Below, in pieces: positions 1 to 16,617 of a stretch of DNA of 27,692 bases. The translations under genes and the position numbers were made by a program. The notes under the pieces were generated by a model, which worked only from the letters and a program-made list of their open reading frames with translations, searched no databases and had not been told where the DNA came from. Each line of letters begins with the position of its first letter. Position 1 is the stretch's first letter. Where the stretch lies: assembly GCA_002305725.1 (NCBI GenBank), contig DBQM01000057.1, positions 1 through 27,692 on the forward strand, read 5' to 3'. Source of the stretch: Ruminococcus sp. UBA1394 (lineage in GTDB: Bacteria > Bacillota > Clostridia > Oscillospirales > Ruminococcaceae).

Positions 1-27
1 ATTATATTGTAACAGGAGTTGATGCAG

Positions 28-972
28 ATGCCCTTAGTACCAACGAAAAACAATTCAAATCAAACTAAAACAGAGAAATCCGAAAAACAAGAAGTGGCTT
101 TTATGGTTTCAAAACCCAAATTCAAACTTTCTGACTTAATTCTGTCTGAAAAAAATTTGGACGAATTAAACACAGTTATCAAAGCTAAGGAATGCTGGAT
201 TAAGGTTTTTGTAGAATGGAATCTCCAGTCTGTAATGAAACAAAGAAAGAGTTTGTTTATAAATTTATACGGAGATCCCGGAACAGGAAAAACAATGGCT
301 GCCCATGCAATTGCAAATGAACTCAATAAAGAGATGATTTGTGTTAACTATGCTGACATTGAATCTAAATACGTGGGAGAAACCAGTAAAAATCTGACTT
401 CCCTATTTAAGACCGCTTCCACAAAAGATATCATCATTTTTTTTGATGAAGCGGATGCCTTGCTCAGTAAGCGTGTAACCAATATGTCAAGTTCTACGGA
501 TGTCAGTGTAAATCAGACTCGCTCTGTACTACTTACTTTACTGAATGATTTTGATGGTATGGTGATATTTGCCACAAATTTCATCAGCAATTATGATCCG
601 GCTTTCATGCGTAGAATACAGTACCATATAAAATTTGAACTGCCTGATACAGAATTGAGAAAAAGGTTATGGAGTATGTACATACCAAAAGAAATGCCTA
701 CGAATGCCGATATTCTCGAAATTGCTAAGAAATATGACGGAATTAGTGGCAGTGATATTTCAAATGCCGTATTAAAAGCTGCTTTAAAAGCAGCAAAAAA
801 TCATGCTTTTCTTGTAAAACAATCGGATTTTGAAGAAGCAATCACTGAAATTATAAAAAGCAAAAAGGCAAACAAAAATATTGATGACAGTGATGTGAAA
901 ATCACAAAAACAGAGGTTGTTCCGGAATCAGAGGTTCCGAAAGACATAGTAGCAAAATCAAATAATATGTAA
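28..972 (+). CDS. Classical AAA-family ATPase. Walker A GDPGTGKT, pore-loop-like YVGE, Walker B IIFFDEADAL, sensor-1 ATN, Arg-finger FMRR. It has a short N-terminus with no obvious substrate domain.
   Basis: ORF track 19..972. AGGAG at 14-18 favours the ATG at 28. AAA motifs were read directly from the translation. Confidence 0.75.
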   Translation: MPLVPTKNNSNQTKTEKSEKQEVAFMVSKPKFKLSDLILSEKNLDELNTVIKAKECWIKVFVEWNLQSVMKQRKSLFINLYGDPGTGKTMAAHAIANELNKEMICVNYADIESKYVGETSKNLTSLFKTASTKDIIIFFDEADALLSKRVTNMSSSTDVSVNQTRSVLLTLLNDFDGMVIFATNFISNYDPAFMRRIQYHIKFELPDTELRKRLWSMYIPKEMPTNADILEIAKKYDGISGSDISNAVLKAALKAAKNHAFLVKQSDFEEAITEIIKSKKANKNIDDSDVKITKTEVVPESEVPKDIVAKSNNM

Positions 973-988
973 AATGGAGGAGTTAATC

Positions 989-1357
989 ATGATTTTATTT
1001 TCAGTATTGGCAACAATCGGTGCAGCGGTTGTACTATCTTTGCTTGATAAGTTTTATGATGATATTATCAAGTGGCTCAAGGTTATTGGTCAGGTAGCAA
1101 AAAAAGCTGTGCAGGGGGTGCTTATAGGATGTAAAACTTTTATCAATGCTGGACGTGCTGCTTTTCGCACTGCCGGAAAAGAAATTTCAAGGAATTACTC
1201 AAAAGTCGGCGATCAGTGGCAAGTTACAGAGGTTGAAAGAAATGTTTCTGCTGACAAAATACCTGATGAAATTTATCAGCAGGCTGAACAGACAACAGAT
1301 GATCTGCTTGAACTAACGGCGGATATTGAAGCACAGCTTCTTAAAAATTATCAGTGA
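989..1357 (+). CDS. Small protein with an N-terminal hydrophobic/amphipathic segment. Paralog of the 1803-2249 product.
   Basis: GGAGGAG at 977-983 precedes ATG 989. It is translationally coupled to the AAA ATPase gene. It shares ...NYSK..D....T.V....S.D(K/E)IP(D/A)(E/D)I with ORF 1803-2249. Confidence 0.55.
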   Translation: MILFSVLATIGAAVVLSLLDKFYDDIIKWLKVIGQVAKKAVQGVLIGCKTFINAGRAAFRTAGKEISRNYSKVGDQWQVTEVERNVSADKIPDEIYQQAEQTTDDLLELTADIEAQLLKNYQ

Positions 1358-1365
1358 GGTGCAGT

Positions 1366-1797
1366 ATGGCAAAAGTAAATATATTTGAAAACTTTGGTTC
1401 TTTTCTGGAACAGGGTAAATCCAGTACCAAGAAATCAGATTCTTCTCCGCTGACATGGGAAAAATTCATTGAGAAAACTGGAAAAGATATCGACAAGCGT
1501 CTTATAGCTCATGCTAAAAAAGAAGGACTTGTCTATGTCGGTGGTAAATGTCGTTTTACAGTAACAGCTTCTGAACAGGACGAAAACAAGTTTGTCTTGA
1601 ATGTAGATGCAGAACTGTATTACAAGGATCAGTTTAAAGCTGAAAATAACTTTCAGATCTATCCCCTGCATACCGAAAGGAACTTCGAGGGCTTTGCATT
1701 GGATGATGATGAAACAAAAAATCAGCTTGAAAAGCTCAAAACAGAACAGTATGAATTTAATGTGGAAACACCACAGTTTAAAAATGAAAAGGAGTAA
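1366..1797 (+). CDS. Hypothetical protein of about 143 aa. Soluble and acidic.
   Basis: RBS-like TGAGGTG sits 6 nt before ATG 1366. It overlaps the stop of the upstream gene, so it is operon-internal. Confidence 0.5.
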   Translation: MAKVNIFENFGSFLEQGKSSTKKSDSSPLTWEKFIEKTGKDIDKRLIAHAKKEGLVYVGGKCRFTVTASEQDENKFVLNVDAELYYKDQFKAENNFQIYPLHTERNFEGFALDDDETKNQLEKLKTEQYEFNVETPQFKNEKE

Positions 1798-1802
1798 TTA
1801 TC

Positions 1803-2249
1803 ATGGGATTTTTCAAAAAACTAGGTAGCCTTCTTGACAAAGCATTTGAAAAGATTGCAAAACTTACTAAGAAATTAGTAAAATTCATGGTAAATGGATT
1901 GAGAAAAGTTGCAATGACTATCGGCAAATTCTTTACACTGCTGACACAGTGGATAGACAAGGCTATGAATTACGTTGCAGCAACTTTTGGGGTTATTGTA
2001 TCCGGCGTTCAGACGTTTTTAAAGAAAGTCGGCGATGAATATCAGGAACTTTCATACAACTACTCTAAGCAGTCGGATGGTTCTTACATAAAGAATACGG
2101 TTGTAAAACAGACGTTTGTATCGGAAGACGAAATTCCGGCTGATATAAAGGAAAAAGCTTTGATGATGGAAGAAGGAAACATGATAGATATGTCCACTAC
2201 AACTGCCTCAAAGCAGGAATATGCTTGTAATACTCTAAATATTGCATAA
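1803..2249 (+). CDS. Small amphipathic protein (MGFFKKLGSLLDKAFEKIAKL...). Paralog of the 989-1357 product, with an insertion.
   Basis: AAAGGAG RBS before ATG 1803. Shares the paralog motif with the 989-1357 product. Confidence 0.6.
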   Translation: MGFFKKLGSLLDKAFEKIAKLTKKLVKFMVNGLRKVAMTIGKFFTLLTQWIDKAMNYVAATFGVIVSGVQTFLKKVGDEYQELSYNYSKQSDGSYIKNTVVKQTFVSEDEIPADIKEKALMMEEGNMIDMSTTTASKQEYACNTLNIA

Positions 2250-2266
2250 GGATGGAAGGAAACGTC

Positions 2267-3529
2267 ATGGTTTATATTATTATCTTATTAATTCTTGCAG
2301 GCGCTTTATGGTTTTTTGGTAAAAAAGCCAAAGGTTTTTATAAGGGTCATGAATTTACAATAAAATATATACTACTTTCTTTTTTGTTTGTAACAGTATC
2401 GGCGACTCTTTATGACAGCAGCTCTAATGAAGATTCTTATTATAACAGTTATTATTATGAAAATAATAATGATCTTAATACTGGTCTAATCGTGTCACTT
2501 TGTATTGTTGTTGCTTTATATATAGTTATGCGTTTACTTTGTAAACCGAACATTAATAAATTTTATGATAACAACAGATATACAATAAATTCAATATTTA
2601 TAAGTTCTATAGTTGTATTATTATTATCAGCCTTTATTAAAAGTGTTGCTGTTACTATTATTTGTACTATAGCAGCTGCTGTTATATGCATTTATATAAG
2701 GATATCTTACCAGTCAAGAGTTATTGGTTATATATCTAAATATATTTACAATATTGCTAATGGAATCGATAAGCAAAACTTATTAACTGAAGCTCATTTT
2801 TTCTCACAACCTGAAGCCAAAAGATTGTTGAATCAAGGTTATAAAATTAATGATATGTCGCCTTTGGATTTCATGAGAGCAATTTTAAGAGACAACGTAA
2901 TTAATGGAATAAAAAAAGAATTCATAGAGGGACTTGAGGAAAGTGAAAATAAAGATATAGGAAGAATTTTCTTCTACTACGAATATATACACTATCTCCC
3001 TTACCTTGAAGAACAAGGTATTAATTTAATAGACTGTATTGACGATTTCGGCATTATAAACAGCTCTTATTGGTACATCGAAGATGTGGCATTTTTCAGC
3101 AATGTTCTGTTGGAAGATGCAATATCAGTGGCTGAACTGTCCATAAGAGACACTCCAAAGTTATCAGATGTACCATTTTCACTGTATTATTTTATTAACC
3201 ATATGTATGGCTTGAATTTTTTAAATTCTTATGTAACTGAATATGATTTAGATGGTCTTAAAAATAAACCTGAACTTTTTAAGGATGACTTTGATGCATT
3301 ATATAATTCATTTGGTAAAGCAATGCTTGATGTAATGACAAAGAATAACCGGATAATTAAAACGCCCAGTGGAAATGAAGAGAACGAATTTTTATATTCT
3401 TATAATCATGAAGATGAGGATGGAATAATTAAAGAAGAATATGGTCAGCAGTTTGAAGCTCATAGAGTTCCAATGGATGTTGATATTTCACAAGGACAGC
3501 TGGATGAATTGGCAGGTTGCCCTGCTTAA
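2267..3529 (+). CDS. Polytopic membrane protein. About 4 predicted hydrophobic helices in the first ~150 aa and a ~260-aa C-terminal soluble domain of unknown function.
   Basis: ORF track 2252..3529. GGAAGGA RBS favours ATG 2267, with ATG 2252 as alternative. Long hydrophobic stretches at the N-terminus. Confidence 0.6.
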   Translation: MVYIIILLILAGALWFFGKKAKGFYKGHEFTIKYILLSFLFVTVSATLYDSSSNEDSYYNSYYYENNNDLNTGLIVSLCIVVALYIVMRLLCKPNINKFYDNNRYTINSIFISSIVVLLLSAFIKSVAVTIICTIAAAVICIYIRISYQSRVIGYISKYIYNIANGIDKQNLLTEAHFFSQPEAKRLLNQGYKINDMSPLDFMRAILRDNVINGIKKEFIEGLEESENKDIGRIFFYYEYIHYLPYLEEQGINLIDCIDDFGIINSSYWYIEDVAFFSNVLLEDAISVAELSIRDTPKLSDVPFSLYYFINHMYGLNFLNSYVTEYDLDGLKNKPELFKDDFDALYNSFGKAMLDVMTKNNRIIKTPSGNEENEFLYSYNHEDEDGIIKEEYGQQFEAHRVPMDVDISQGQLDELAGCPA

Positions 3530-3670: not shown

Positions 3671-4336
3671 ATGTCTCTCTTTTCTAACCTTTTCAAGCCA
3701 AAATCTGTCAGTGAAACTGAATCTGTCATAAATCTTCTGAAATGCTGGGAGAAAGAGCATTTTCCTTATAGTGGATACAGTTACACTTCATATACAAGAA
3801 CTAAAATAAATATAAGCAGATATACAGTGTATAAAAGTGAAACAGGAGAAAAAATACAGCTTTCTGATATTGAGTTGCCGCAGACAGAAAAATCAAATGT
3901 CAAGCGTATTGTAAAGGCAGTCGTTGATTGGTGGGAGAATGATAAAAGTTCAACCCTGCCTTATTTTATAGCAGAATACCGCAATAATGTCGCTACTGAA
4001 GTACAAAGGTTCAAAGCAAACTGCATAAAGCTTGATAAGCTTAGCGATGAACTGAAAAAGGACATTCTTTTCTCTGAGATAGAGCGTCTGTTTCAGGCAA
4101 AGCTCAAGGTTCTATATAATGAATTGCTTTTCTGCAAGTTTGAGAATCTTAGAAATGTAAAATATTTTCAGACGATACATAGTAAATTATTGTCGCTCTG
4201 CAATGATATGAAAATTCTGAATACGGCTTTTGCGGATTATATGTATGCCCTTTCCAGAACGGAGTATGAAGATAATAAGCAGGATTTGGAACGAATCCGT
4301 ATCAGTGTAGAAGCAATGTCTGCGGTTGTTGAATAA
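3671..4336 (+). CDS. Hypothetical protein, 221 aa.
   Basis: Own promoter and RBS. Terminator follows immediately. Confidence 0.6.
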   Translation: MSLFSNLFKPKSVSETESVINLLKCWEKEHFPYSGYSYTSYTRTKINISRYTVYKSETGEKIQLSDIELPQTEKSNVKRIVKAVVDWWENDKSSTLPYFIAEYRNNVATEVQRFKANCIKLDKLSDELKKDILFSEIERLFQAKLKVLYNELLFCKFENLRNVKYFQTIHSKLLSLCNDMKILNTAFADYMYALSRTEYEDNKQDLERIRISVEAMSAVVE

Positions 4337-4357
4337 TATGCCAAATAATAAAAATAT

Positions 4358-4398
4358 GCTGCTCATATCCCATATTGTGGGTATGAGCAGCTTTTCTT
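4358..4398 (+). terminator. Intrinsic terminator.
   Basis: Stem gctgctcata/tatgagcagc, then TTTTCTT. Confidence 0.6.
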
Positions 4399-4420
4399 AA
4401 TGATTTTTTCAAAAATGCTA

Positions 4421-4449
4421 TTGCATTTCTCTGCGAATCGTGTTATAAT
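4421..4449 (+). promoter_or_regulatory. Strong promoter TTGCAT-17-TgtTATAAT (extended -10).
   Basis: -35 at 4421-4426, TG at 4442-4443, -10 at 4444-4449. Confidence 0.55.
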
Positions 4450-4456
4450 ATATGTG

Positions 4457-4703
4457 TCAGTTAGCGTATCAAACCCACAACATATGGACAGTACTCATAT
4501 TCATTAGGTGTCGCAACACCAAACAAACCTGAGATTTCAATTTTTCTGTCATAGACATCTAAGGGAATTCACCCTAATAAATTTTATAAAATCGCATAAT
4601 TGTGTAGGGGTGGATCGCCTCCACCAATTGAATATGCGTATTTTTAAAGGTTACAAAAAGGTCGCAAATACGGTAAATAACGTATTTGCGGCTTTTTTGT
4701 TTT
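4457..4703 (+). ncRNA. Candidate small non-coding RNA of about 245 nt. It is bounded by the 4421-4449 promoter and an intrinsic terminator. It contains an internal GGTGGA-tcgcc-TCCACC hairpin.
   Basis: No RBS-preceded ORF lies between promoter and terminator. The track ORF 4508-4744 has no RBS and reads through the terminator. The terminator is cgcaaatacg/cgtatttgcg plus gcTTTTTTGTTTT at 4663-4703. Confidence 0.3.
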
Positions 4704-4793
4704 ATCAGAAATATGCACTTTTGTTCAGTGAGGGGTCAGAGTAAAGGGATTCTGACGAATTTTCTGTCGCAAAATTCTGGAATCCTCTTGTTA

Positions 4794-5046
4794 AAAAACA
4801 ATGCGACAATGCGACAAGGTGATTTTGGTTTGAGTGCGGTTATGTTAAAGTTTGTGGATTTTGGGGGAGATTGCAGCAATTTGCAGTGCTTCAAAAAACA
4901 TATATACAATTCTCTCTTATAAAGAAACAGTGCGACAATGCGACAAGATGAATTTGTTTTAATTGCGATTTTGTTAAAGCTTGTGACTTTGGGGCAGATT
5001 GCGGTATATTGCGGCGTTTTAAAGTATGTATATAACCGTCTTCTGT
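4794..5046. repeat. Two diverged direct repeats of about 128 bp. Each begins with a doubled TGCGACAA and contains doubled TTGCAG (copy 1) or TTGCGG (copy 2).
   Basis: Copy 1 is about 4794-4916 and copy 2 about 4924-5046, roughly 70-75% identical, with a 129-bp period. Related GTCGCAA motifs in the opposite orientation lie at about 4510, 4657 and 4765. Confidence 0.7.
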
Positions 5047-5164
5047 CAGGGAAGTGTGTAGCATCAGTTCTTTGAAGTAAAATTCGCAAAAATAAAAATA
5101 CGCAGGTACAGCGAGAGGTAATCTGAAATACCGTAACAAACAGCCTCCATAAATATATATTATA

Positions 5165-5210
5165 ATTCCGATAAGGTGAATCTTTCAGCCTTATCGGAAT
5201 TTTTGTTTTT
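5165..5210 (+). terminator. Strong intrinsic terminator-like hairpin immediately upstream of the amidoligase RBS.
   Basis: 12-bp perfect stem attccgataagg/ccttatcggaat (5165-5176 / 5189-5200), then TTTTTGTTTTT. Confidence 0.6.
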
Positions 5211-5225
5211 GGGAGGTACTTGAAA

Positions 5226-6320
5226 ATGGAAGAAGAGAGAATCTGTACTCACTGCGGAGAGGAAATCAGTGAGGGAGAAGGAACAACGGTAAACGGAGAT
5301 TTGCTGTGTAATGAATGTGTTGATGAACACTGCATAACATGCGACCACTGCGGAGAAGTCATTTACACAGATGATTGTATCACCGATGACAACACCTGGC
5401 TCTGTCAGGACTGCTTTGAAGATTACTACCGCAGATGCGAAAGCTGCGACAGAATCATTCATGACAATGACGTGAACTGGCATAGTGACCTGCCGTACTG
5501 TGACAGCTGCTATGATGACCTTGATTCAGACGACGAGATTGAGGAGTATAGCTACAAGCCTACGCCATTGTTCAGAGGTGACGGTAAACGATACTTTGGA
5601 GTAGAGCTTGAGATTGACTGCGGTGGAAAGGATAATGATTATGCTTACAGACTGAAAAATATCGGCAACAGTCAGCTTGAAAACATCTACATAAAGTCGG
5701 ATGGAAGCCTTGATGAGGGTCTGGAAATAGTTTCCCATCCAATGACTCTTGAATATCACATGAACGAAATGAACTGGGAGGGTCTGATGAAAGAAGCAAT
5801 AAACCTTGGCTATCGTTCTCACCAGACATCAACCTGCGGACTCCATATCCATGTAAATCGTAATGCTTTTGGGGATAACCAGTCGGAGCAGGAAGAGGTC
5901 ATCAGCAAGATACTCTTCTTCGTTGAGAAAAACTGGAATGAGGTCTTTAAATTCAGCAGAAGAAACAGCTATAACATGAACAGATGGTCAGCAAGATACG
6001 GTTTTGAAAAGACAGGCAAGGAAATCCTTGATAAGGCTAAGAACAGCAGTAATGGCAGGTATGTTGCTGTAAACCTTAACAACTATCATACCATTGAATT
6101 CAGACTGTTCAGAGGCACATTAAAATACAATACATTCATAGCCACATTGCAGATGGTAAATAAAATCTGTGATGTGGCTATTTCTATGTCTGAGAGTGAG
6201 ATTGATGAAATGAGCTGGTCAGAGTTTGTAAGTTCCGTTGAAGAACCTGAGTTAGTGCAGTATCTGAAAGAGCGTAAGCTCTATGTTAATGAGGAAGTGA
6301 ACACTGAGGAGGAAATGTGA
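5226..6320 (+). CDS. Putative amidoligase (glutamine-synthetase-like 'Amidoligase_2'-type) with N-terminal zinc ribbons formed by several CxxC pairs.
   Basis: GGGAGG sits 9 nt before ATG 5226. CxxC pairs: CTHCGEE..CNEC, CITCDHCGE, CQDC..CESCD..CDSC. These are followed by FGVELEI, GLEIVSHP and CGLHIHV, which resemble amidoligase family motifs. A class-II GATase lies downstream in the same operon. Confidence 0.65.
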   Translation: MEEERICTHCGEEISEGEGTTVNGDLLCNECVDEHCITCDHCGEVIYTDDCITDDNTWLCQDCFEDYYRRCESCDRIIHDNDVNWHSDLPYCDSCYDDLDSDDEIEEYSYKPTPLFRGDGKRYFGVELEIDCGGKDNDYAYRLKNIGNSQLENIYIKSDGSLDEGLEIVSHPMTLEYHMNEMNWEGLMKEAINLGYRSHQTSTCGLHIHVNRNAFGDNQSEQEEVISKILFFVEKNWNEVFKFSRRNSYNMNRWSARYGFEKTGKEILDKAKNSSNGRYVAVNLNNYHTIEFRLFRGTLKYNTFIATLQMVNKICDVAISMSESEIDEMSWSEFVSSVEEPELVQYLKERKLYVNEEVNTEEEM

Positions 6321-6544
6321 TGAACAAAGAAAAGGTAAAATCTTTAAAGGAACGTTATCCGGCAGGTACAAGAATAAAGCTTGATTACATGGATGATATT
6401 CAGGCAGTTACGGCGGGTACAAAAGGTACAGTTGACCATGTTGACGATATGGGTACAATCCATATGAAATGGGATAACGGCAGTAGTCTTGGAATATGTC
6501 CTGATACTGACCGTTTTCACGTTGTAGGAAAGGCAGGTGAATAA
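6320..6544 (+). CDS. Small conserved protein, DUF4314-like (YPAGTR..L..MDD.Q....GT.GTV..VDD.GTIH..WDNGSSL).
   Basis: GAGGAGG sits 8 nt before ATG 6320, overlapping the upstream stop. The pattern matches, from memory, a small protein family common in Firmicutes conjugative elements. Confidence 0.5.
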   Translation: MNKEKVKSLKERYPAGTRIKLDYMDDIQAVTAGTKGTVDHVDDMGTIHMKWDNGSSLGICPDTDRFHVVGKAGE

Positions 6545-6546
6545 CT

Positions 6547-7485
6547 ATGTGCGCAATCTACGGATTCTTAAACTACGGCAGAAAAGTTAAAAACAGGGTT
6601 CTGAAAAACATTCTCAGAGAACTGTCAATAGCGGCTGAATGCAGAGGTACTGATGCCACAGGGATAAGCTATGTAAATAATGGTGAAATCGTAACATTCA
6701 AACAGCCGAAACCTGCACATAAAATGAAACTGTTCTTTCCGAAAGATACAGTAGCAGTAATCGGACATAACAGGCTTACAACCCAGGGCAGTGAAAAGAA
6801 AAACTGCAACAATCATCCGTTTGAGGGTAAAACTCCACAGCACAGTTTTGCCTTTGCACATAATGGTGTGCTGTACAATGATAAGGAGATAAGACGTGAA
6901 AAGAAATTACCCAAAACACAAATCGAAACGGACAGTTATGTTGCAGCTCAGCTTCTGGAACAGGCTGAAAATGTCGATATGGATGCTGTTAAAAATATGG
7001 CTGAAATAGTGGAAGGAAGCTTTGTTTTCACGATTCTCCGTGATGACAATACGCTGTTTCTCGTAAAGGGAAGTAACCCGATTACACTGTATCATTTCCC
7101 GGAACAGGGACTGTATATCTACGCATCAACAAAAGAGATTCTGAAAACTGCTTTGAAGAATGCAAAGTTTAAAGAACCCTATGAAGAGATAAAAATTGAT
7201 ACTGGCGATATATTGCAGATAAATTCCGACGGTGAAATTTTCTGTGATACTTTTGAAACTTTAAGCCGCTATAGCTTTGACTGGCATGACTGGTACGGTC
7301 TGTATTCATGTGAGGAATCGGAAGATGATTTGCTTGCAATATGCAATTGCTTCGGAGTAGACAGGGAAGATGTGGAATTTCTTTATTCCTGTGGCTATAC
7401 ACCGGACGAGATAGAGGAAATGCTCTTTGATACAGACCTTTTTGAGGAAACGTTAAATGAAGCAAAAGCGCTGTTAAAGTGTTAA
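6547..7485 (+). CDS. Class-II (Ntn-type) glutamine amidotransferase-like protein with an N-terminal nucleophile Cys2 (MCAIYGF...).
   Basis: AGGTGA RBS. The Met-Cys-Ala-Ile-Tyr-Gly start is typical of Gn_AT_II / Ntn hydrolases. It lies in the same operon as the amidoligase. Confidence 0.7.
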   Translation: MCAIYGFLNYGRKVKNRVLKNILRELSIAAECRGTDATGISYVNNGEIVTFKQPKPAHKMKLFFPKDTVAVIGHNRLTTQGSEKKNCNNHPFEGKTPQHSFAFAHNGVLYNDKEIRREKKLPKTQIETDSYVAAQLLEQAENVDMDAVKNMAEIVEGSFVFTILRDDNTLFLVKGSNPITLYHFPEQGLYIYASTKEILKTALKNAKFKEPYEEIKIDTGDILQINSDGEIFCDTFETLSRYSFDWHDWYGLYSCEESEDDLLAICNCFGVDREDVEFLYSCGYTPDEIEEMLFDTDLFEETLNEAKALLKC

Positions 7486-7514
7486 GCATAAAAAATGAAA
7501 TGGAGGAAATCAAC

Positions 7515-7628
7515 ATGAAAGAATTTTTAGCAGGACTTATTCTGACACTGGTTGTCGGAGGCGTTGGAATCGCAATCGAAATGCAGCAGGAGAAAGAGGT
7601 GAAATATATCGATGCCAATAGCAATTGA
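7515..7628 (+). CDS. Small hydrophobic peptide, 37 aa (MKEFLAGLILTLVVGGVGIAIEMQQEKEVKYIDANSN).
   Basis: TGGAGGAAA RBS 5-6 nt upstream. Not in the ORF track because it is under 60 aa. Shares FLAG and AIEM motifs with the next peptide. Confidence 0.35.
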   Translation: MKEFLAGLILTLVVGGVGIAIEMQQEKEVKYIDANSN

Positions 7629-7692
7629 GATGTTTCTTGCAGGTGTTGCGTGTGGTATGGAGATTCTGGCACTTGTTAAGAATAAGAAGTAA
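7612..7692 (+). CDS. Small hydrophobic peptide, 26 aa (MPIAIEMFLAGVACGMEILALVKNKK).
   Basis: GAGGTGA RBS 9 nt upstream. Overlaps the end of the previous peptide in another frame. Confidence 0.3.
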   Translation: MPIAIEMFLAGVACGMEILALVKNKK

Positions 7693-7697
7693 AACTG

Positions 7698-7731
7698 TGA
7701 GGCTTGGCGTATGCTGAGCCTCATTTTTTTG
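7698..7731 (+). terminator. Intrinsic terminator closing the amidoligase operon.
   Basis: Stem tgaggct/agcctca, then TTTTTTT. Confidence 0.6.
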
Positions 7732-7744: not shown

Positions 7745-8038
7745 ATGATTAAAGTTACAAATTTAAGAGAAACTGACATGATTAAGCCTTTAATGCTGAG
7801 AGCCTATATCGCAAAGACAATCACAGCTCTCATGGAAGGGTATAGTGTTGATACTCTTGATGATATCGGGTGTTTTATTGTACTGGAAAAGTACGAATTT
7901 GTTGAGTTTCAGATTAATGAAATGGAGTTTATCGAAGTTCTTGAAATCGGAGGAAAAAACTATCTTCATGGTGTAAGAATTATCGGTGACAGCTATGGTG
8001 AGGATGTTTTTCTGCCAGTTGAGGTGATAAAGGTATGA
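7745..8038 (+). CDS. Hypothetical small protein of about 97 aa, translationally coupled (ATGA overlap) to serine recombinase 1.
   Basis: GGAGGG sits 8 nt before ATG 7745. The stop overlaps ATG 8035. Confidence 0.5.
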   Translation: MIKVTNLRETDMIKPLMLRAYIAKTITALMEGYSVDTLDDIGCFIVLEKYEFVEFQINEMEFIEVLEIGGKNYLHGVRIIGDSYGEDVFLPVEVIKV

Positions 8039-9609
8039 GCAGTCTGATAATACCAAAAGTAGCTCTCTATGCCCGTTTCAGTTCTGATAATCAGAGAACG
8101 GAGAGTATAGATGCTCAGATAAGAGCAATGACAGAATACTGCCGACAGCAACATTGGCAGATTGTCGCTACATATACAGATGAAGCTAAAAGTGCTACAA
8201 CTGATAACAGACCTCAGTTTCAGCAAATGGTGTCTGATTCTTCAAAAGGATTATTCAGTATCGTGCTTGTACACAAATTGGACAGATTCAGCCGTAACAG
8301 GTACGATTCGGCAATGTATAAAAGCAGGCTTAAAAAGAATAACGTAAGAATTGCAAGCGTACTTGAAAGAATTGATGATACTCCCGAAAGTGTCATGATG
8401 GAAGCAATGCTTGAAGGTATGGCTGAATATTATTCGAAGAATCTGAGCCGTGAGGTTATGAAGGGTATGAATGAAACTGCGTTACAGGCAAAGCATACAG
8501 GCGGTTGTTGTCCGCTTGGGTATGATTTGAATAGTGACAGAAGGCTTGTAATAAATTCTCATGAAGCCGAGTCGGTCAGAATAATTTTTGATATGTATGA
8601 CAATGGCTATGGATATTCAGAAATAATTGATTTTCTGAATGAACACGGGTACAAGACAAAGAGAGGTTGTACATTCGGTAAAAATAGTTTGTATGAAATA
8701 CTGGGCAACGAGAAATATACGGGCGTATATATTTTCAATAAGGCTTCTGCTAAAAATTCCGGGACTAATAAAAGGAATAATCATTCATACAAGGCATATG
8801 ATTCAGTTGTCAGAGTGGAAAACGGCTGTCCACAGATAATCAGCAAGGAACTTTTTGAACGTGTTCAGAAAAGAAGAATGGCAAACAAGCATATAGCCGG
8901 AAGTTATCACAGCCGTGAGTTTTACCTTTTGTCAGGGCAGATTTTTTGTGGGATATGCGGTAAACGTTTACAGGGCAATTTGAGATTTTCCGGAAGAAAC
9001 AAGAGCAGACTGGCTACATACCGCTGTAATACTCATCGTTCTGAATGTTCATGTAAAGAAATCAATAAGGATTATCTGGACCAGTATATTACAGAACTCC
9101 TGCAGGAGAAAATATTCAACAGCAAGGCTATGCACAGAATTGTAAACAGGCTGAACAGTTACATCAAAAAATATAACAGGCAGTATGATGATACCTATGC
9201 CAATGTACAGGCTGAGTATGATGAAGTATGCAAAAGCCTTGGCAATCTTACAGAAGCAATCGAAAAAGGCGTTATTACCGAATCAATTGTAAACCGTGCA
9301 GAAGCACTCGAAAAGCAGAAAACAGAAATACAGACAAAGCTTAACGATATGCATCAGTTTATACCGTTGAAATATGAGGATTTTTCTCCGTTGATTGACG
9401 AGTTTAAAGGACTGAAAAGAAACACTGAGGAGTTCAGGACATTCGTTCAGAGATATGTTATAAAAATCACTGCGTTTTCTGAACATCTTGAAATTGAACT
9501 TAACACTGGTCTGGGAATGGCTGAGGAGATTAATGAAGTGGTGAGTATTTCACGTGAAAATCTTTATGAAATGTATGGGAGCCGTGTCCGTAAACAGAAG
9601 TGGGAATGA
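8035..9609 (+). CDS. Large serine recombinase (resolvase catalytic domain, recombinase domain, zinc ribbon, coiled coil).
   Basis: N-terminus ALYARFSSDNQRTESIDAQ with a catalytic Ser. VLVHKLDRFSRN. Zinc ribbon CGICGKRL...YRCNTH...C.C. 524 aa. Confidence 0.9.
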   Translation: MSSLIIPKVALYARFSSDNQRTESIDAQIRAMTEYCRQQHWQIVATYTDEAKSATTDNRPQFQQMVSDSSKGLFSIVLVHKLDRFSRNRYDSAMYKSRLKKNNVRIASVLERIDDTPESVMMEAMLEGMAEYYSKNLSREVMKGMNETALQAKHTGGCCPLGYDLNSDRRLVINSHEAESVRIIFDMYDNGYGYSEIIDFLNEHGYKTKRGCTFGKNSLYEILGNEKYTGVYIFNKASAKNSGTNKRNNHSYKAYDSVVRVENGCPQIISKELFERVQKRRMANKHIAGSYHSREFYLLSGQIFCGICGKRLQGNLRFSGRNKSRLATYRCNTHRSECSCKEINKDYLDQYITELLQEKIFNSKAMHRIVNRLNSYIKKYNRQYDDTYANVQAEYDEVCKSLGNLTEAIEKGVITESIVNRAEALEKQKTEIQTKLNDMHQFIPLKYEDFSPLIDEFKGLKRNTEEFRTFVQRYVIKITAFSEHLEIELNTGLGMAEEINEVVSISRENLYEMYGSRVRKQKWE

Positions 9610-9614
9610 TTTAA

Positions 9615-9833
9615 ATGTTTGAAAATAACAAAGGCAGATACCTGACAAGAGGCGTTAACAATGAGATACCGCTTGCCCTGCAAATCTTTATGTGGAACAG
9701 AATTGATGAATTGCCTGAAAAAAGAGACTATCTGCAAATTTTTGATCTCTCGGTTACAGAGTCAGGACTGCAGAAAATCGTACACAGACAGGAACAACCG
9801 GAGTATCGTGTGGAATATGTGATTACAGAGTAG
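9615..9833 (+). CDS. Hypothetical 72-aa protein downstream of recombinase 1.
   Basis: ORF track only. Weak RBS. Confidence 0.35.
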   Translation: MFENNKGRYLTRGVNNEIPLALQIFMWNRIDELPEKRDYLQIFDLSVTESGLQKIVHRQEQPEYRVEYVITE

Positions 9834-9922
9834 ATTTCTCCGAAAGCTGTCACAGCTAAGATTTATGTCATTGATGATGGTGAGCATTGCACTATGCTGC
9901 TTGCTGAAGAATACTGATGCTG

Positions 9923-9957
9923 AAAACTCCAGCTGCTGAAAAGTGGCTGGAGTTTTA
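9923..9957. terminator. Bidirectional intrinsic terminator between convergent genes.
   Basis: AAAACTCCAGC / GCTGGAGTTTT stem, with an A-run on one side and a T-run on the other. Confidence 0.6.
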
Positions 9958-10007
9958 GTCTTATAAAAAATGCGGAATAGATAAACTGAATATGTATAAT
10001 TATATAC

Positions 10008-11534
10008 TTATATGTCGATATATTCCAGCTCAACGAACATTTCACTTTGTTCGCTGATAATGTTGCCTAATCGGTATTGTTCACATTCTTTTCCGCTATA
10101 TACATAATTGAGTTTGAATACAGCATCAAAAGTGTGCTTGTCAGCATTATCCTTGGAATCAAGCAAAGAAACTACATAATGCCAGATGCCTAACAAAAAT
10201 GGCTCAAATTCAAGTTCTTCAATATCACATAATTGTTCTTTGGTCAAATGAGTACCATCAGAACAAACGTAGAATTTCTGGCTATCTTGTATACTGCTGT
10301 CATTTTTGATAAATTCGATTATTTCAACAACAAGATCTTCATTTTTTTTCGGTGAGTTAAAATATTTTCTTCGGATTTTAATTACTTCACTCAAAATTTT
10401 ATGATAATGATTTTTCACCATTGCGGAGAAGTTATCAATTTGTTTTCTGTCATTCAGTCCTTCAGTTTTATAAATGGTTTTAAGAACTTCAAATTGGTTG
10501 TGGTGAAATCGTGCATAACTTTTATCAGGGGTTATTTTACAATCATTTTCTATGGTGAGATTTATTAAATCCAGAAATAATTTTTCAATTGCGTTTTTAT
10601 TTCTTTTGGGATGAATGGTCTGAATATTTTCCGTCAGAAACTTAAAGAAAATACTTCTGGATAATGTTATATCCTCTTTTTCCAATATAGAAATAATATC
10701 AGTACGGATATCCAGTTCTGACGGATAATAATCTAGTATTCTATTACATATTTCAGGGCTTGAATTCTCATTTTTTGAGGCTGATAACTTGGAAATTGAA
10801 TATCTGAGATGATTTGTTGCTCCCTTATTTGGTTCTGCCTTCATATGGTTATATTCAAGGTTGATATTCAGTTGCTTATAGTTAATATCAACTGATATTT
10901 TCTGATTTTTTTCAATTTTTGTTTGAAGTCGCTGTGAAGATATCAGGTAGTGCCAAACTCCTAATATAAATGCTTCAAACTCAAAATCTATCATGTTTCT
11001 GATATCGGATTTAGTTCTTGATGAGCCATTGGAGCAAATATAAAATTTCTGGTGCTCTTCAATACTGTTATCGTTAAGTATAAGGTACAGTGCTTTCCGG
11101 ACAAGTGTATCGTTTCTGAGAGATTTGTTATCATCAAAATATCTTTCGGCAAATTGAACCGCCTTTATATAAATTTTTTGGTACTGGTTTTTTACTTCGT
11201 AGTCAAATTCGTCTACAATTTCGCTGTCATTGAAAATATATACAACACTGTTTTTTTTATAGAACTTTCCAAGTCTGAAATCACCAGAAGCGTTTTTTAT
11301 TGACCCTAAGATTCGATTTGTATTATTATCCATCAGTCCCTCAAAATTACCGAGCGTATTATTCAAATGATTCGTCAATTGATTCAGGTCATAAAACATA
11401 TGTGCTTGTGACAGCTTTCCGATATTATTGTAGTTGTCACCGGGATTAAGTGGATTTTTCCTTGTATCTAAAAGTAAATTAAAAAATATACTGGCTGTGA
11501 ATTGCATATTTTTGCATGGCAGATTTATTGGCAT
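10008..11534 (-). CDS. Hypothetical 508-aa protein with an internal tandem domain duplication. Repeated motif QKFY[IV]CS[ND]G..TK...[DE]FEFE[AP]F[IL]LG[VI]WHY[LV][IV]S.
   Basis: AGGAG RBS 9 nt upstream on the minus strand. It is the only minus-strand gene. The two repeat units lie at about aa 150-210 and 400-470. Confidence 0.7.
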   Translation of the reverse strand: MPINLPCKNMQFTASIFFNLLLDTRKNPLNPGDNYNNIGKLSQAHMFYDLNQLTNHLNNTLGNFEGLMDNNTNRILGSIKNASGDFRLGKFYKKNSVVYIFNDSEIVDEFDYEVKNQYQKIYIKAVQFAERYFDDNKSLRNDTLVRKALYLILNDNSIEEHQKFYICSNGSSRTKSDIRNMIDFEFEAFILGVWHYLISSQRLQTKIEKNQKISVDINYKQLNINLEYNHMKAEPNKGATNHLRYSISKLSASKNENSSPEICNRILDYYPSELDIRTDIISILEKEDITLSRSIFFKFLTENIQTIHPKRNKNAIEKLFLDLINLTIENDCKITPDKSYARFHHNQFEVLKTIYKTEGLNDRKQIDNFSAMVKNHYHKILSEVIKIRRKYFNSPKKNEDLVVEIIEFIKNDSSIQDSQKFYVCSDGTHLTKEQLCDIEELEFEPFLLGIWHYVVSLLDSKDNADKHTFDAVFKLNYVYSGKECEQYRLGNIISEQSEMFVELEYIDI

Positions 11535-11585
11535 ATTTTGTTTCTCCTGTGCAGATTGTTTTGAATTTTTGTTGCTTTACTTGTT

Positions 11586-11667
11586 TCTGTAAAAAAATTA
11601 CTCGGATTATCCGGGTTACTCTTATATGAAGCTCTGGATTACGCTATGATGTAGTTATAAGATGATG
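11586..11667. repeat. Direct repeat copy 1 (about 85 bp). Contains the 11-bp palindrome CGGATTATCCG and CTCTGGATTACGC.
   Basis: About 85% identical to 11741-11825. Confidence 0.65.
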
Positions 11668-11740
11668 AAAAGCTCATCGGAATATATTATAGCCACATGA
11701 TGGCTGAATGTCATGGATTCGGATATTACTGATTTTCAGG

Positions 11741-11825
11741 TAAGTGAAAAAATTACTCAGATTATCCGGGTTATTATTACATGAAGCTCCGGATTACGCT
11801 ATGATATAGTTAGATGGTAAAATAA
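11741..11825. repeat. Direct repeat copy 2 (about 85 bp). The palindrome is degraded to CAGATTATCCG.
   Basis: Aligned by eye to copy 1. Spacing is about 157 bp. Confidence 0.65.
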
Positions 11826-12082
11826 TCATCGATTTCATTATATCATTACAACGTTGTTATGTCAATAAGTAGTGATGTAATGTCGGCATCTTGACAATTG
11901 AATAGTTCTGAAACACGAGAGCAATGCTCAGAGTGAGCAGCTGTCAGGGACGTATCTGTATTCGGACAAAGGTCTTGGTAAGTTCTTTCCGAAACAGTGG
12001 TTCAGTTATCTGCTGCAGCGCATTTCAGAACGTAAAACTTCATCCACCATATTTTTTTATTATCAAGAAAGGAGTCATTTAT

Positions 12083-12511
12083 ATGGCTAAATATTTAAAC
12101 AAGAACAATTATTCAAAGGTAGCATACGGAACTGAAGGTTACACAGATCTCTCCGGATTTGAAGAGGTTACCGCAGAAGCGGGCAGCAAAGGTGAAATAG
12201 GCGTTATCAGGATAGATGACTGTGTCAGAATCAGATTAAGTAAAAATCTGTTCTCACAGCTTGAAGTGCCGGACTGCGTTAAAGTTCTGCTTGGTGACAA
12301 AAAAATTGCAATCAGGTCCGTACCTGCCGGTACACCGGGGGCTTATGAACTCGGCAAAGGTGCAGTTATTTATTCAACACCTCTCGGAGAGAAGATAATT
12401 AAAGCAGCCTCAGATGTTGAATTTAAGGAAAATGCTACCACAAGAATAGGTACAATCGACCAGATACAGGAAGATGAAAATGGTTTGGTGACCGTAATTC
12501 TCAGTATCTGA
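12083..12511 (+). CDS. Hypothetical protein of 142 aa.
   Basis: Strong AAAGGAG RBS before ATG 12083. The upstream part of track ORF 11924.. lacks an RBS and looks non-coding. Confidence 0.6.
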   Translation: MAKYLNKNNYSKVAYGTEGYTDLSGFEEVTAEAGSKGEIGVIRIDDCVRIRLSKNLFSQLEVPDCVKVLLGDKKIAIRSVPAGTPGAYELGKGAVIYSTPLGEKIIKAASDVEFKENATTRIGTIDQIQEDENGLVTVILSI

Positions 12512-12587
12512 TAAGCTCATTCGTGGTGCGTCGTTGTTATAACCGGCGCACCAAAAACAAATCTTATATTTTTTGGAGGAAATTGTT

Positions 12588-12977
12588 ATGGAAAATGAAT
12601 TTATTGAAATAATGAACGATAATAGCAGTGACAAAGGCAAAAAAGGTAAGGGCAGAAAGCTTACAGCTAAAAATTCAACCTTTAATCTTGATGATGGTAA
12701 ATACAAAGCCATCATTACAAACGCTTTCTGGTATAAATCCGAGGACGGCAGAGACAGAGTAATGATGGCATATGAGTTTGAGGACGGAACAGAGTTCAAA
12801 AATTCAGTTGACGGCGACTGGATCGATGAATATCCATTTTCTGTTATTATTTCACAGGCAGATATTGAATATGTTGAAGATTTTATTGGTCTTAAAGTAG
12901 AGTTTGAAATACTTAACCATGAAGGAGATTATGGAGTAACCTTCTCAAATATCAGAAAGATAACTCTTGACGAATAA
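12588..12977 (+). CDS. Hypothetical acidic protein of 129 aa.
   Basis: GGAGGAAA RBS before ATG 12588. Confidence 0.6.
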   Translation: MENEFIEIMNDNSSDKGKKGKGRKLTAKNSTFNLDDGKYKAIITNAFWYKSEDGRDRVMMAYEFEDGTEFKNSVDGDWIDEYPFSVIISQADIEYVEDFIGLKVEFEILNHEGDYGVTFSNIRKITLDE

Positions 12978-12986
12978 GCTTATACA

Positions 12987-13021
12987 CCGGAATCCTGTTA
13001 ATCAGGATTCCGGAATTTTTA
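12987..13021 (+). terminator. Intrinsic terminator.
   Basis: ccggaatcctg / caggattccgg stem with loop ttaat, then AATTTTT. Confidence 0.65.
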
Positions 13022-13036
13022 AAGGTGTTGGTTTAT

Positions 13037-14770
13037 ATGGGTATAAAGAAACCTCCGGAAATTTCGGAGTTTAAGGATACTTCAGCTGAGGAGTCAATAA
13101 ACGAGATAAAAAAGGGCATTGTTGAATTCGGCATGAAATCACTGGACAAAAACGACATAAAGTATCTGTCACAGACAGAGCTGCACTTTCCTGTAGTTTC
13201 TGTTCAGGATAAACATCATCTGATTGCTGTAAGCACAAAACGTTTTAGAGGTCTTGTATGGCTCTGTAGCTGGTTTGAGGTTGAGTCAGCGTACAGGGAC
13301 AAGAATAACGTGTACCGTGTAAGGCTGAGAATAAATGACAGAGCTGTTGAGGTCGATTACGATACATTATATCCGAAGGACATCACCAAACTTTCAAGAT
13401 ATGGTCTTATTATTAATTTTGACCATGCTGAAAGTCTGAGCAGATATATTTTCAGAATGATTGCAAAACTTGAAGTAAAGGAACAGTCCAACGGCATGGG
13501 CTTTATGATGCAGGGCGGACAACTGACATTCAGGGCATATGATGAAGAACCGCAGATACTCCAGTATACTGAAGGCATAACGTTGTCAGAGTACGTGGAA
13601 GGGCTAAACAGTCTGCTTACAAATACGGCTGTAATGTTCGCACTGTGCTGCAGCTGTGCTTCGCTTTTTCTTGCGTATTTAAGTATGAAATGCAGCATAG
13701 CACTGCAGTCATTCATAATTTCTTTCTACGGCAAGAGCACAACAGGCAAGAGCACATCACAGGCTTTAATGACATCAGTATTCACGAAGCCGGACGACAA
13801 GAAGATATACATTCCTTTTTTTGGCACACTTAATGCTATAGTGCGGAACCTGTCTCAGAAATATGGAATTCCCCAGCTGTTTGACGAGGCAACTGTTTCA
13901 TCGGGTCTGAATATGGAAAATCTGCTTTACACTATAACACTCGAGCAGGATAAGAGCAGATGCCGTAGTAATACAATGTTGGAAAAATCTGACACGTGGA
14001 AGCTGATTGCAATAACTTCCTCTGAAAACAGATTGCTTGCAGATAATCGTATGCATAACAAGGGGCTTGACGCTCGTCTGCTGAGTTTTGAACTGAAATT
14101 TACCGACAGCCGTGAACACAGTGACTTGATACATGAGTTCTGCGGCAAAAATTATGGCATTCTGGGCAAATCATTATCAGAATATCTTTTAGGTTCAGAG
14201 CCTGAAAAGATTGCTGAAATTTACGAAGAATGCAAGGAATTTATGAGAAATGCAATTGATGATGAATTGCGTTTCGACCTTACAGAAAGGCTTGTAAACG
14301 AGTATGCGCTCATTCTGATGTCTGCAAGGATTCTCAGTGATTTTGGCGTTAACATGGACACAGAGGGCATAACAGCCATTCTGACAGCAAATCACAATGA
14401 AACACGTGAGAGGACTGATATTGCTGACAAGTACTATCAGCATCTCGTAGCGTACGCAGTTACCCACCCATACATGGAAGGAATCAAGAAGGATGAAGCA
14501 AATAACTCTGTTGCATTTGTTGATGAGCTTTTCCTGAAAATTCTTGAAAATCACGGGGCTTCAAATCCCGACCTGGTCATAAGGGAACTTGATGCAGGAG
14601 GATATATTTTCAGACGTAAGAAAAACTCAATCAAGAACAGGCTTCGTTTCAACGATACACTTGTAAGTTGTTATGAAATTGTTCTGCCGAAGGACGATTC
14701 TGAATCCGATGACGGCTGTATGACGCTTGAATACGTACTTACACATTTTGAGGGGCTTGATGAATCATGA
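13037..14770 (+). CDS. P-loop NTPase of the SF3-helicase / DUF927 / VirE-like type. Likely a replication initiator or helicase. Walker A FYGKSTTGKST, Walker B LFDEA, motif C ITSSEN.
   Basis: AAAGGTG RBS before ATG 13037. Motifs read from the translation. Sits in a replication module with PolA downstream. Confidence 0.65.
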   Translation: MGIKKPPEISEFKDTSAEESINEIKKGIVEFGMKSLDKNDIKYLSQTELHFPVVSVQDKHHLIAVSTKRFRGLVWLCSWFEVESAYRDKNNVYRVRLRINDRAVEVDYDTLYPKDITKLSRYGLIINFDHAESLSRYIFRMIAKLEVKEQSNGMGFMMQGGQLTFRAYDEEPQILQYTEGITLSEYVEGLNSLLTNTAVMFALCCSCASLFLAYLSMKCSIALQSFIISFYGKSTTGKSTSQALMTSVFTKPDDKKIYIPFFGTLNAIVRNLSQKYGIPQLFDEATVSSGLNMENLLYTITLEQDKSRCRSNTMLEKSDTWKLIAITSSENRLLADNRMHNKGLDARLLSFELKFTDSREHSDLIHEFCGKNYGILGKSLSEYLLGSEPEKIAEIYEECKEFMRNAIDDELRFDLTERLVNEYALILMSARILSDFGVNMDTEGITAILTANHNETRERTDIADKYYQHLVAYAVTHPYMEGIKKDEANNSVAFVDELFLKILENHGASNPDLVIRELDAGGYIFRRKKNSIKNRLRFNDTLVSCYEIVLPKDDSESDDGCMTLEYVLTHFEGLDES

Positions 14771-14955
14771 AAGTAAAAGATTTTGAATTTAAAAGGGATT
14801 TCCTTAAACATATAAACTTTAAGAACGGTTATCATGTCTACACAGGCATGAAAACTGTATCAGATAAATCGGGGGAAGAACTTCCCGAAAGTGTAATAAA
14901 GCTGCTCTACAGAATATATGCAGAGTCAGTTAATAATGAAGAAACCGAAGTATAA
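14767..14955 (+). CDS. Hypothetical 62-aa protein, coupled (ATGA) to the helicase gene.
   Basis: ORF track only. Overlapping start/stop. Confidence 0.35.
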   Translation: MKVKDFEFKRDFLKHINFKNGYHVYTGMKTVSDKSGEELPESVIKLLYRIYAESVNNEETEV

Positions 14956-14970
14956 TAACACGAATATTTT

Positions 14971-15015: not shown

Positions 15016-15030
15016 AAGGGATTTGATAGT

Positions 15031-16554: not shown

Positions 16555-16563
16555 TAAAACAAG

Positions 16564-16600: not shown

Positions 16601-16617
16601 ATAAGGAGTTTTTTATT

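Follow-up and report, generated by a model that had tools for sequence, protein, structure and literature searches.

An amidoligase and class-II glutamine amidotransferase operon in the backbone of an SCC-like integrative element of Ruminococcus

Contig DBQM01000057.1 of Ruminococcus sp. UBA1394, a stretch of 27,692 nucleotides (nt) that is called the window here, carries at 5226–7485 a cassette of three genes that encode a glutamine synthetase (GS)-like amidoligase, a small protein of the DUF4314 family and a class-II glutamine amidotransferase (GAT-II). The pairing of an amidoligase with a class-II glutamine amidotransferase (GAT) in mobile elements and phages was reportedly predicted in 2009 by Iyer, Abhiman, Burroughs and Aravind in Mol Biosyst, and the initial annotation of the window had assigned the cassette to this class. 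The finding is thus the correct recognition of a known, predicted and unstudied system, and the annotation will not surprise a specialist. What is new here is its context in the backbone of an element resembling the staphylococcal cassette chromosome (SCC), the facultative nature of DUF4314, the micro membrane open reading frames (ORFs), a 5′ hairpin that possibly gates the operon, and the argument for gamma-glutamyl chemistry.

The three ORFs were confirmed at 5226–6320, 6320–6544 and 6547–7485 on the plus strand, which also carries all other features of the operon given below. The amidoligase gene (5226–6320, 364 residues, stop codon 6318–6320) is likely to start at ATG 5226 and not at TTG 5220, because a ribosome-binding site (RBS), read from the sequence as GGGAGG at 5211–5216, is located 9 nt upstream; GGAGG is kept in the relatives. 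The ATG of the DUF4314 gene (6320–6544, 74 residues; the mechanically called ORF runs from GTG 6317) shares one base with the amidoligase stop codon (TGATG), and the GAT-II gene (6547–7485, 312 residues, beginning MCAIYG) opens 2 nt past the DUF4314 stop. The one-base overlap and the 2-nt gap agree with the earlier description of DUF4314 as translationally coupled between the two enzymes. The genes overlap or abut, with one conserved promoter-like element upstream and one terminator downstream, which upholds the proposal of a single operon. It is well supported that this operon is a self-contained unit of approximately 5132–7731 in the backbone of an SCC-like integrative element. The cassette had been delimited as 5226–7485; its three genes are real, but the operon reaches to about 7731 with two micro membrane ORFs and also includes the 5′ hairpin. 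In the Pfam check that the initial annotation had proposed, all three proteins scored above the curated cut-offs, which are 22 bits for Amidoligase_2, 27 bits for DUF4314 and 27 bits for GATase_6.

For the amidoligase, the match to Amidoligase_2 (PF12224) has a score of 28.1 bits and covers only residues 160–311, corresponding to profile positions 70–241 of 245; scores of relatives are 30–45 bits. Because this match is marginal and partial, the possibility raised at the outset that 5226–6320 encodes a zinc-ribbon protein with no GS-like fold was tested directly. A structural model derived from an alignment of 18 sequences (mean predicted local distance difference test score, pLDDT, of 81) has the glutamine-synthetase-like catalytic fold, at approximately residues 120–350 (nt 5583–6275), and this possibility can be set aside. 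Residues invariant in the 18 homologues are E127-x-E129, D159-G-S, E167, H199, H207-x-H209, R278, E291, R293 and R296, of which E127-x-E129, H207-x-H209, E291, R293 and R296 were matched to the metal and ATP ligands of GS by motif pattern alone. Sequence and model together give good support to the prediction that the protein is an ATP-dependent carboxylate–amine ligase of the GS fold. A sequence search for solved structures found none for the catalytic domain and only LIM-like matches to the zinc ribbons.

The zinc-ribbon array occupies residues 7–95 (nt 5244–5510). Its 12 invariant cysteines form three CxxC-(17 or 18)-CxxC units, that is, Cys4 ribbons, with weak matches to LIM domains, and together with the Pfam score and the GS fold they bear out the description of a GS-like amidoligase with N-terminal zinc ribbons. 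The ribbons had been regarded as an extra feature of this protein. They are indeed present, but they are a hallmark of the clade: a search with just the catalytic domain gave 9,795 representatives at 50% identity, and about 70% of the best 150 of these have at least five CxxC motifs N-terminal to the catalytic domain, in varying number, so that the array marks the whole clade. A conserved linker, IEEYSYKPTPLF (residues 104–118, approximately nt 5535–5579), lies between the array and the catalytic domain. Its motif IEEYxYKPxPxFxG is nearly invariant (Y108, Y110, K111, P112, P114, F116 and G118). In the model this linker has a pLDDT of less than 50, and it may be a mobile piece of the active site or a site of self-modification. 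Ten long proteins of the best 150 were scanned and contained Amidoligase_2 only, plus one fusion to a BspA-type leucine-rich repeat. No fusion of amidoligase and GAT was present in these ten proteins or among the listed matches of either family, and domain fusions were therefore dropped as a clue to the substrate.

The assignment of the third gene product as an amidotransferase of the N-terminal nucleophile (Ntn) type with Cys2 as the nucleophile is one on which Pfam, the NCBIfam alignment, conserved residues and the fold all agree. GATase_6 scores 52 bits, and GATase_7 and GATase_4 are also above their cut-offs. Residues 1–183 align with the N-terminus of GlmS far below the NCBIfam equivalog cut-offs, for which reason we do not regard the protein as GlmS, PurF or AsnB. 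The model (pLDDT 85) has the alpha-beta-beta-alpha fold of Ntn enzymes, in a domain of residues 2–235 (nt 6550–7251). The nucleophile Cys directly follows the initiator Met, and both M1 and C2 are invariant in an alignment of 24 sequences, as are R76, T79, Q80, G81, N106, G107 and D129. N106-G107 constitutes the oxyanion hole and D129 is the residue for the alpha-amino group, so the pocket is intact. Since the residues that in GlmS and PurF contact the alpha-amino and alpha-carboxyl groups are invariant, the substrate is expected to be free glutamine or a gamma-glutamyl-X compound and not an internal residue of a protein. Past residue 235 there is no fused acceptor or synthase domain of the PurF, GlmS, AsnB or GltS type, only a disordered linker (residues 241–259) and a conserved four-helix C-terminal module of about 50 residues (residues 261–311, nt 7327–7479). 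The absence of an acceptor domain and the NCBIfam scores far below the equivalog cut-offs indicate a stand-alone domain protein like EgtC.

A scan of one genome per species returned at least 535 cassette loci, nearly all from Ruminococcus and other Oscillospiraceae, and some genomes carry more than one copy. We analyzed 80 of these loci plus three contigs encoding a 92%-identical relative (83 in total); counts out of 68 refer to the loci with at least 1.3 kb of sequence downstream of the amidoligase. GAT-II is directly 3′ of the amidoligase in 67 of the 68. The sole exception (L004) has the C-terminus of its amidoligase replaced, with no GAT-II gene after it (2024–3226). In a further locus, L005 (1486–2790), which is below the length limit and was not counted, a deletion has removed DUF4314, GAT-II and the micro ORFs and has left the amidoligase fused in frame with the C-terminal portion of a 99-residue protein, the one that is coupled to the recombinase in these elements. 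Both loci are derivatives by deletion or rearrangement, that is, by decay. The two enzyme genes overlap in many loci that lack DUF4314, and at 90% identity there are 4,530 clusters of amidoligase homologues and 4,567 of GAT-II. The pairing is near-obligate and far above chance. In NCBI naming, the two proteins fall under "amidoligase family protein" and "class II glutamine amidotransferase".

DUF4314 behaves differently from the two enzymes. The window protein matches the full-length profile (PF14192) at 102.6 bits, an identical 74-residue protein is already on record, and a sequence search for solved structures found none for this family. DUF4314 lies between the enzymes in just 10 of the 68 loci; its presence and coupling in the window, as first described, are correct, but it is not a core member of the cassette and is facultative. 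It is also found in long arrays of small genes with PcfJ. In conjugative elements of Tissierella and metagenomic relatives (L087, 4347–7295; L092, 4335–7313), DUF4314 is translationally coupled between an ArdA-domain protein (anti-restriction type) of 553–557 residues and an unannotated protein of 339 residues, with an orphan Dam-type methylase and YodL nearby. The 339-residue partner was considered as a cryptic amidoligase or GAT and rejected, with an hhalign probability of 0.1% for both. DUF4314 thus behaves like an independent accessory gene of the establishment region. This distribution bears on whether the cassette could be a tagging system similar to pupylation, in which DUF4314 would be joined through a C-terminal Glu to lysines and GAT-II would serve as a deamidase or de-tagger as Dop does. 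The window protein ends in GKAGE and that of one relative in GGE, as such a tag might, but DUF4314 is absent from 58 of the 68 loci, its C-termini vary (AGE, EGK, EAE, GGE, GDV), and elsewhere it is coupled to the unrelated ArdA-domain and 339-residue genes. In addition, D129, which binds a free alpha-amino group, is ill-suited to a C-terminal Gln or Glu of a protein. We consider tagging of this kind extremely unlikely; the distribution and the variable C-termini, with no conserved Gly-Gly-Gln/Glu tag ending, led us to reject DUF4314 as a Pup-like tag.

Two micro ORFs follow GAT-II. Micro ORF 1 (7515–7628, 37 residues, MKEFLAGLILTLVVGGVGIAIEMQQEKEVKYIDANSN) has the RBS GGAGGA at 7503–7508 and encodes one hydrophobic helix with a polar tail. 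Micro ORF 2 (7612–7692, 26 residues, MPIAIEMFLAGVACGMEILALVKNKK) overlaps it, has its own RBS and encodes a hydrophobic helix with a basic tail. Of the 68 loci, 30 have a small hydrophobic ORF after GAT-II, 26 of them being of the window type (architecture A, described below), and recognizable homologues of micro ORF 1 are present in most of these; a gene of 33 residues is called at the same position in the 92%-identical relative. About 20 window-type loci have an overlapping second ORF with the same overlap, length, basic tail and own RBS despite divergence in sequence. In the other arrangement, architecture B, a single-helix peptide of 48–67 residues is often encoded between the two enzymes. 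Such peptides could themselves be what the enzymes modify, for example at their acidic tails, to give a membrane-active toxin, an exclusion factor or a signal. The recurrence in both architectures of single-helix ORFs with charged tails, while their sequences diverge, would fit this idea, as would the acidic residues at the end of many tails. We regard it as improbable, since many loci have no small ORF (after GAT-II none is found in 38 of the 68), no conserved modification motif or leader-like region was found, and the GAT-II pocket needs a free alpha-amino acid moiety, which an internal residue of a peptide is not.

The region upstream of the amidoligase is conserved. A promoter-like element at 5132–5166 consists of a −35-like sequence, CGTAACAA (5132–5139), and an extended −10, TATATATTATAAT (5154–5166); a consensus scan gave GTAACA-17-TATATT at 5133–5161. 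More than 20 window-type loci have the element directly 5′ of the amidoligase irrespective of the cargo that precedes it, and we infer its promoter function from the sequence. Window-type loci share a −35-like CGTAxCAAC, the extended −10 (TATATTATAAT), a hairpin of 13 bp, a T-run and the RBS. The hairpin with TTTGTTTTT (5164–5210) is a perfect inverted repeat with arms at 5164–5176 and 5189–5201; its start lies within the predicted −10, and the transcript would carry it at the 5′ end. The hairpin region of the window folds as RNA with −24.3 kcal/mol (z = −4.6). The alignment fold comprises 14 pairs, of which 8 show compensatory double changes; the length of the loop is variable, and this favors a nucleic-acid hairpin over an operator of fixed spacing. 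Architecture B has a GC-rich hairpin with a U-tract in the same place, immediately after the DUF960 stop and before the amidoligase. The 5′ hairpin is possibly a terminator- or attenuator-like element that gates the operon. At the 3′ end, the terminator scan placed an intrinsic-terminator-like hairpin at 7697–7731 (12 pairs, 6 of them G-C, then TTTTTTT), and the RBS of the next gene is directly 3′ of it.

The long non-coding leader that precedes this region (4340–5130) contains a terminator at 4358–4391, a bidirectional hairpin at 4653–4700 and a direct repeat (4785–4865 and 4914–4994, 129-nt spacing, 81% identical) that includes TGCGACAATGCGACAAG. The repeat may serve as binding sites or mark the boundary of an element. 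A riboswitch or other known RNA in the 800-nt leader and the 5′ hairpin was considered and rejected: none of the Rfam families attained its gathering score in the window, and the matches in 4300–5300 were at chance level only.

In Ruminococcaceae, SCC-like integrative elements and integrative mobilizable elements carry the cassette as a module of their backbone. In architecture A (the window, R. flavefaciens FD-1 and others), variable cargo is followed by the amidoligase, in some loci DUF4314, GAT-II, the micro ORFs, a gene for a 180-residue protein that is absent in the window, the 99-residue protein, a large serine recombinase, DUF960, two small ORFs, a DUF927 helicase, a second serine recombinase and a family-A polymerase. 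In architecture B, divergent MobC-like and 160-residue genes precede DUF960, the amidoligase, in some loci the membrane peptide, GAT-II and a serine or tyrosine recombinase, and a large P-loop protein and a primase-like gene are often close by. The DUF927 protein matches the Cch helicase of SCCmec (5dgk, E = 2e-26), and therefore we describe the element as SCC-like. With a large serine recombinase, DUF960 and this helicase adjoining the cassette, MobC-like and primase-like genes near its relatives, and homologues in phages, the association with mobile elements stated in the initial annotation holds.

In the window the backbone extends over 7745–18582, and its gene order recurs in R. flavefaciens FD-1 and in other genomes. 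The 99-residue protein is translationally coupled to the large serine recombinase (8035–9609), and DUF960 (9615–9833), the Cch-type DUF927 helicase (13025–14770), the second serine recombinase (15031–16554) and the family-A polymerase (16618–18582) follow; the latter may be a CcPol-like primase-polymerase. Beyond the backbone are a helix-turn-helix (HTH) gene (18733–18999) and, at 19310–21447, a double-zinc-ribbon protein and an SPFH/Band-7 protein with GYF_2; the same trio is located downstream of the cassette in L021 with identities of 68%, 43% and 85%, respectively. At 21627–24746 there is a protein with phospholipase D (PLD)-type nuclease, helicase and DUF3427 regions that matches the model of a type IV methyl-directed restriction enzyme with 776 bits. 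A third large serine recombinase (25305–26882) comes after it and suggests a second, tandem element.

On its other side the cassette adjoins variable cargo of defense genes, so that it sits between this cargo and the serine recombinase. The cargo differs from locus to locus: it includes Kiwa with an LlaJI-type system, and type I and type IIG restriction-modification plus helicase or HerA-like genes. In the window, an IetA-like AAA ATPase (129 bits with PADLOC) and four unannotated ORFs occupy 19–3529. As the IetA-like set is also upstream of the cassette in L030, and partly in L024 and L057, it may be an uncharacterized defense system related to Ietat. PADLOC gave no match for any of the three cassette proteins. 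The pair has a backbone position next to the recombinase in elements that shuttle defense genes, and its function probably bears on establishment or competition of the element.

Relatives of the pair are also known in phages. In mycobacteriophage Marvin (gp105/gp106) and in a freshwater podovirus, an amidoligase is followed by a GAT-II-like gene, both Marvin proteins matching Pfam below the curated cut-offs, and in a C. difficile phage-plasmid the amidoligase is followed by an RlaP-type nucleotidyltransferase in place of GAT-II. These homologues came from a protein-level search; at the DNA level there were essentially no relatives in annotated phages and plasmids. A search of the available literature found no enzymatic or genetic test of the pair. 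Phage genome papers just cite the 2009 prediction, and one paper gives phage-level growth effects only, attributed by its authors to these genes, so that the statement that the pair is biochemically uncharacterized stands. A role in auxiliary metabolism, not based on direct enzymology, has been put forward for a phage of a planctomycete (PMC10945688) and for OM43 phages (PMC10580990). Applied to the window, such a role would mean that the pair boosts the nitrogen, glutamine or gamma-glutamyl-peptide metabolism of the host. The clade-wide zinc-ribbon array and the single leucine-rich-repeat fusion point instead to a macromolecular partner, the pair is encoded in the element backbone by the recombinase, behind a terminator-like gate and among defense genes, and against the NCBIfam models of all housekeeping enzymes both proteins score far under the cut-offs. 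We consider auxiliary host metabolism very improbable.

As far as we know, the characterized GS-fold ligases, such as GS, glutamate–cysteine ligase, PuuA, GmaS and PafA, activate the gamma-carboxylate of glutamate, and the stand-alone class-II GAT proteins that have been characterized, EgtC and yeast Dug3, hydrolyze gamma-glutamyl amides. Because these are the known chemistries of the two families, the reading that we favor, tentatively and with somewhat less than even confidence, is by analogy that both enzymes act on the bond of a gamma-glutamyl amide, the ligase in forming it and the Ntn enzyme in cleaving it. The ligase would activate the gamma-carboxylate of glutamate as an acyl phosphate and join it to an amine on the target, and the Ntn enzyme would hydrolyze gamma-glutamyl amides through Cys2 to remove or recycle the group. 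The outcome would be a writer/eraser or protect/deprotect pair with the logic of EgtA/EgtC or PuuA/PuuD. A macromolecular or polymeric target is probably recognized by way of the zinc-ribbon array, the micro membrane proteins suggest that the enzymes work on the cytoplasmic side of the membrane, and the beneficiary would be the mobile element (in establishment, competition or surface modification) and not the housekeeping metabolism of the host. Consistent with this reading are the GS fold with its invariant acidic, His and Arg motifs, the complete GAT-II pocket, the lack of a synthase domain, the adjacency in 67 of 68 loci, the equal family sizes, the recurrent small hydrophobic ORFs and the position of the cassette between defense cargo and recombinase.

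Much of the same evidence would also fit the main rival, glutamine-dependent amidation, in which GAT-II as a glutaminase docks on the ligase and feeds it ammonia, and the ligase forms a carboxamide. Candidate carboxylates would be a cell-wall precursor, or the Glu, Asp or C-terminus of a protein or peptide, and the closest analogue would be the amidation of lipid II by MurT/GatD. The intact glutamine pocket and Cys2, the near-obligate adjacency with gene overlap and families of equal size, and the tethered helical module of GAT-II, which could dock, are all in line with this explanation, and a membrane-bound, lipid-linked substrate would agree with the micro membrane ORFs nearby. However, no fusion of the two proteins was found among the ten long representatives of the best 150 or the listed family matches, and a flexible tether of 20 residues is ill-suited to a sealed ammonia tunnel. 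To our knowledge, two-subunit amidotransferases use class-I GAT subunits and not class-II, and we know of no GS-fold ligase that takes ammonia from a GAT partner, so neither a GS-fold acceptor nor a class-II GAT as a separate subunit would have a precedent. The class-I (triad) subunit of the heteromeric amidotransferases MurT/GatD and PabA/B was looked for, and the GAT here is class-II. For phage phiEco32, Iyer et al. (2009) reportedly suggested cell-wall modification, according to two papers that cite them (PMC10580990, PMC11318856), which would also be in favor of amidation. Other phages list an amidoligase with a gamma-glutamylcyclotransferase that replaces GAT-II or is beside it, and one such phage also lists a glutathione-synthase-like gene (PMC11318856, PMC10945688). 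A gamma-glutamylcyclotransferase likewise cleaves gamma-glutamyl amides, and this pairing, which ammonia supply cannot explain, counts for the gamma-glutamyl reading. Taken together, we judge amidation to be a possibility to keep in mind but rather unlikely.

Several points also weigh against gamma-glutamyl ligation and hydrolysis. There is no third enzyme to act between ligation and hydrolysis, which would make the two activities a futile cycle if they were alone. A glutaminase/synthetase complex would equally account for the close 1:1 coupling in translation and for the C-terminal module that resembles a docking element. For the catalytic residues of the amidoligase, the correspondence with GS was drawn from motif patterns and not from residue-level superposition, and the specificity of the enzyme for glutamate is assumed from the superfamily. 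The association with gamma-glutamylcyclotransferase was not seen in the 83 loci and comes from other subfamilies described in papers, and membrane localization is inferred only from the neighboring micro ORFs.

If the favored gamma-glutamyl reading is carried further, the cassette could be an establishment or competition device that reversibly gamma-glutamylates (or amidates) a macromolecular host target, for example a lysine of a protein or, at the membrane, a lipid-linked precursor of the cell wall, with the variable zinc-ribbon array selecting the target, the Ntn enzyme as eraser and the 5′ attenuator gating expression. In this full form the proposal is speculative and we think it unlikely. 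If true, it would represent a new bacterial writer/eraser pair of the glutamylation type, common to SCC-like elements, mobilizable islands and phages. In the mobile elements of gut and rumen Firmicutes the pair ranks among the larger uncharacterized enzyme systems, and phages that infect mycobacteria, methylotrophs and other hosts have it as well. With a compact and complete locus, clear enzyme motifs and relatives in cultured strains such as R. flavefaciens FD-1 and R. callidus ATCC 27760, the 2009 prediction is directly testable. The chemistry, if shown, would give a function to thousands of genes that now have only the two NCBI family names.

Comparison with known systems places the cassette near several of them. 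The SCCmec backbone has in common with the window the large serine recombinases, DUF960, the Cch-type DUF927 helicase and the family-A polymerase gene, whereas the two recombinase genes here are 5 kb apart and not adjacent; we know of no amidoligase/GAT-II pair described in staphylococcal SCC. In the PafA/Dop/Pup system, PafA is likewise a GS-fold ligase acting on the gamma-carboxylate of a glutamate of a macromolecule, but the eraser Dop is a paralogue of the ligase and not an Ntn enzyme, and no conserved tag protein is found here. MurT/GatD also combines adjacent genes for an ATP-dependent ligase and a glutaminase, and in Gram-positive bacteria its substrate is the carboxyl of a D-glutamate at the membrane face; the fold of MurT is that of the Mur ligases and GatD belongs to the class-I GATs, in contrast to the GS-like and class-II enzymes here. 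In the PuuA/PuuD-type pathways (putrescine, isopropylamine, aniline), a GS-fold ligase attaches a gamma-glutamyl group to an amine and this group is taken off later by a GAT-like hydrolase, but these hydrolases are class-I (triad) and not class-II, and the operons contain enzymes that oxidize the intermediate, of which there are none here. EgtA/EgtC of mycobacterial ergothioneine synthesis has both a GS-fold gamma-glutamyl ligase and a stand-alone class-II Ntn amidohydrolase that cleaves a gamma-glutamyl amide. Identity to EgtC is 14%, domain scans found no EgtB, EgtD or EgtE domains anywhere in the window, and the present ligase differs by its zinc ribbons and its mobile-element context. With the system of the 2009 prediction the cassette shares two adjacent Pfam families on mobile elements and phages, neither of them characterized, and the gene order of Marvin and the podovirus. 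It differs from the phage versions, some of which have ATP-grasp and gamma-glutamylcyclotransferase genes that are absent here, in that it resides not in lytic phages but in SCC-like and mobilizable elements of Ruminococcaceae, together with micro membrane ORFs and sometimes DUF4314.

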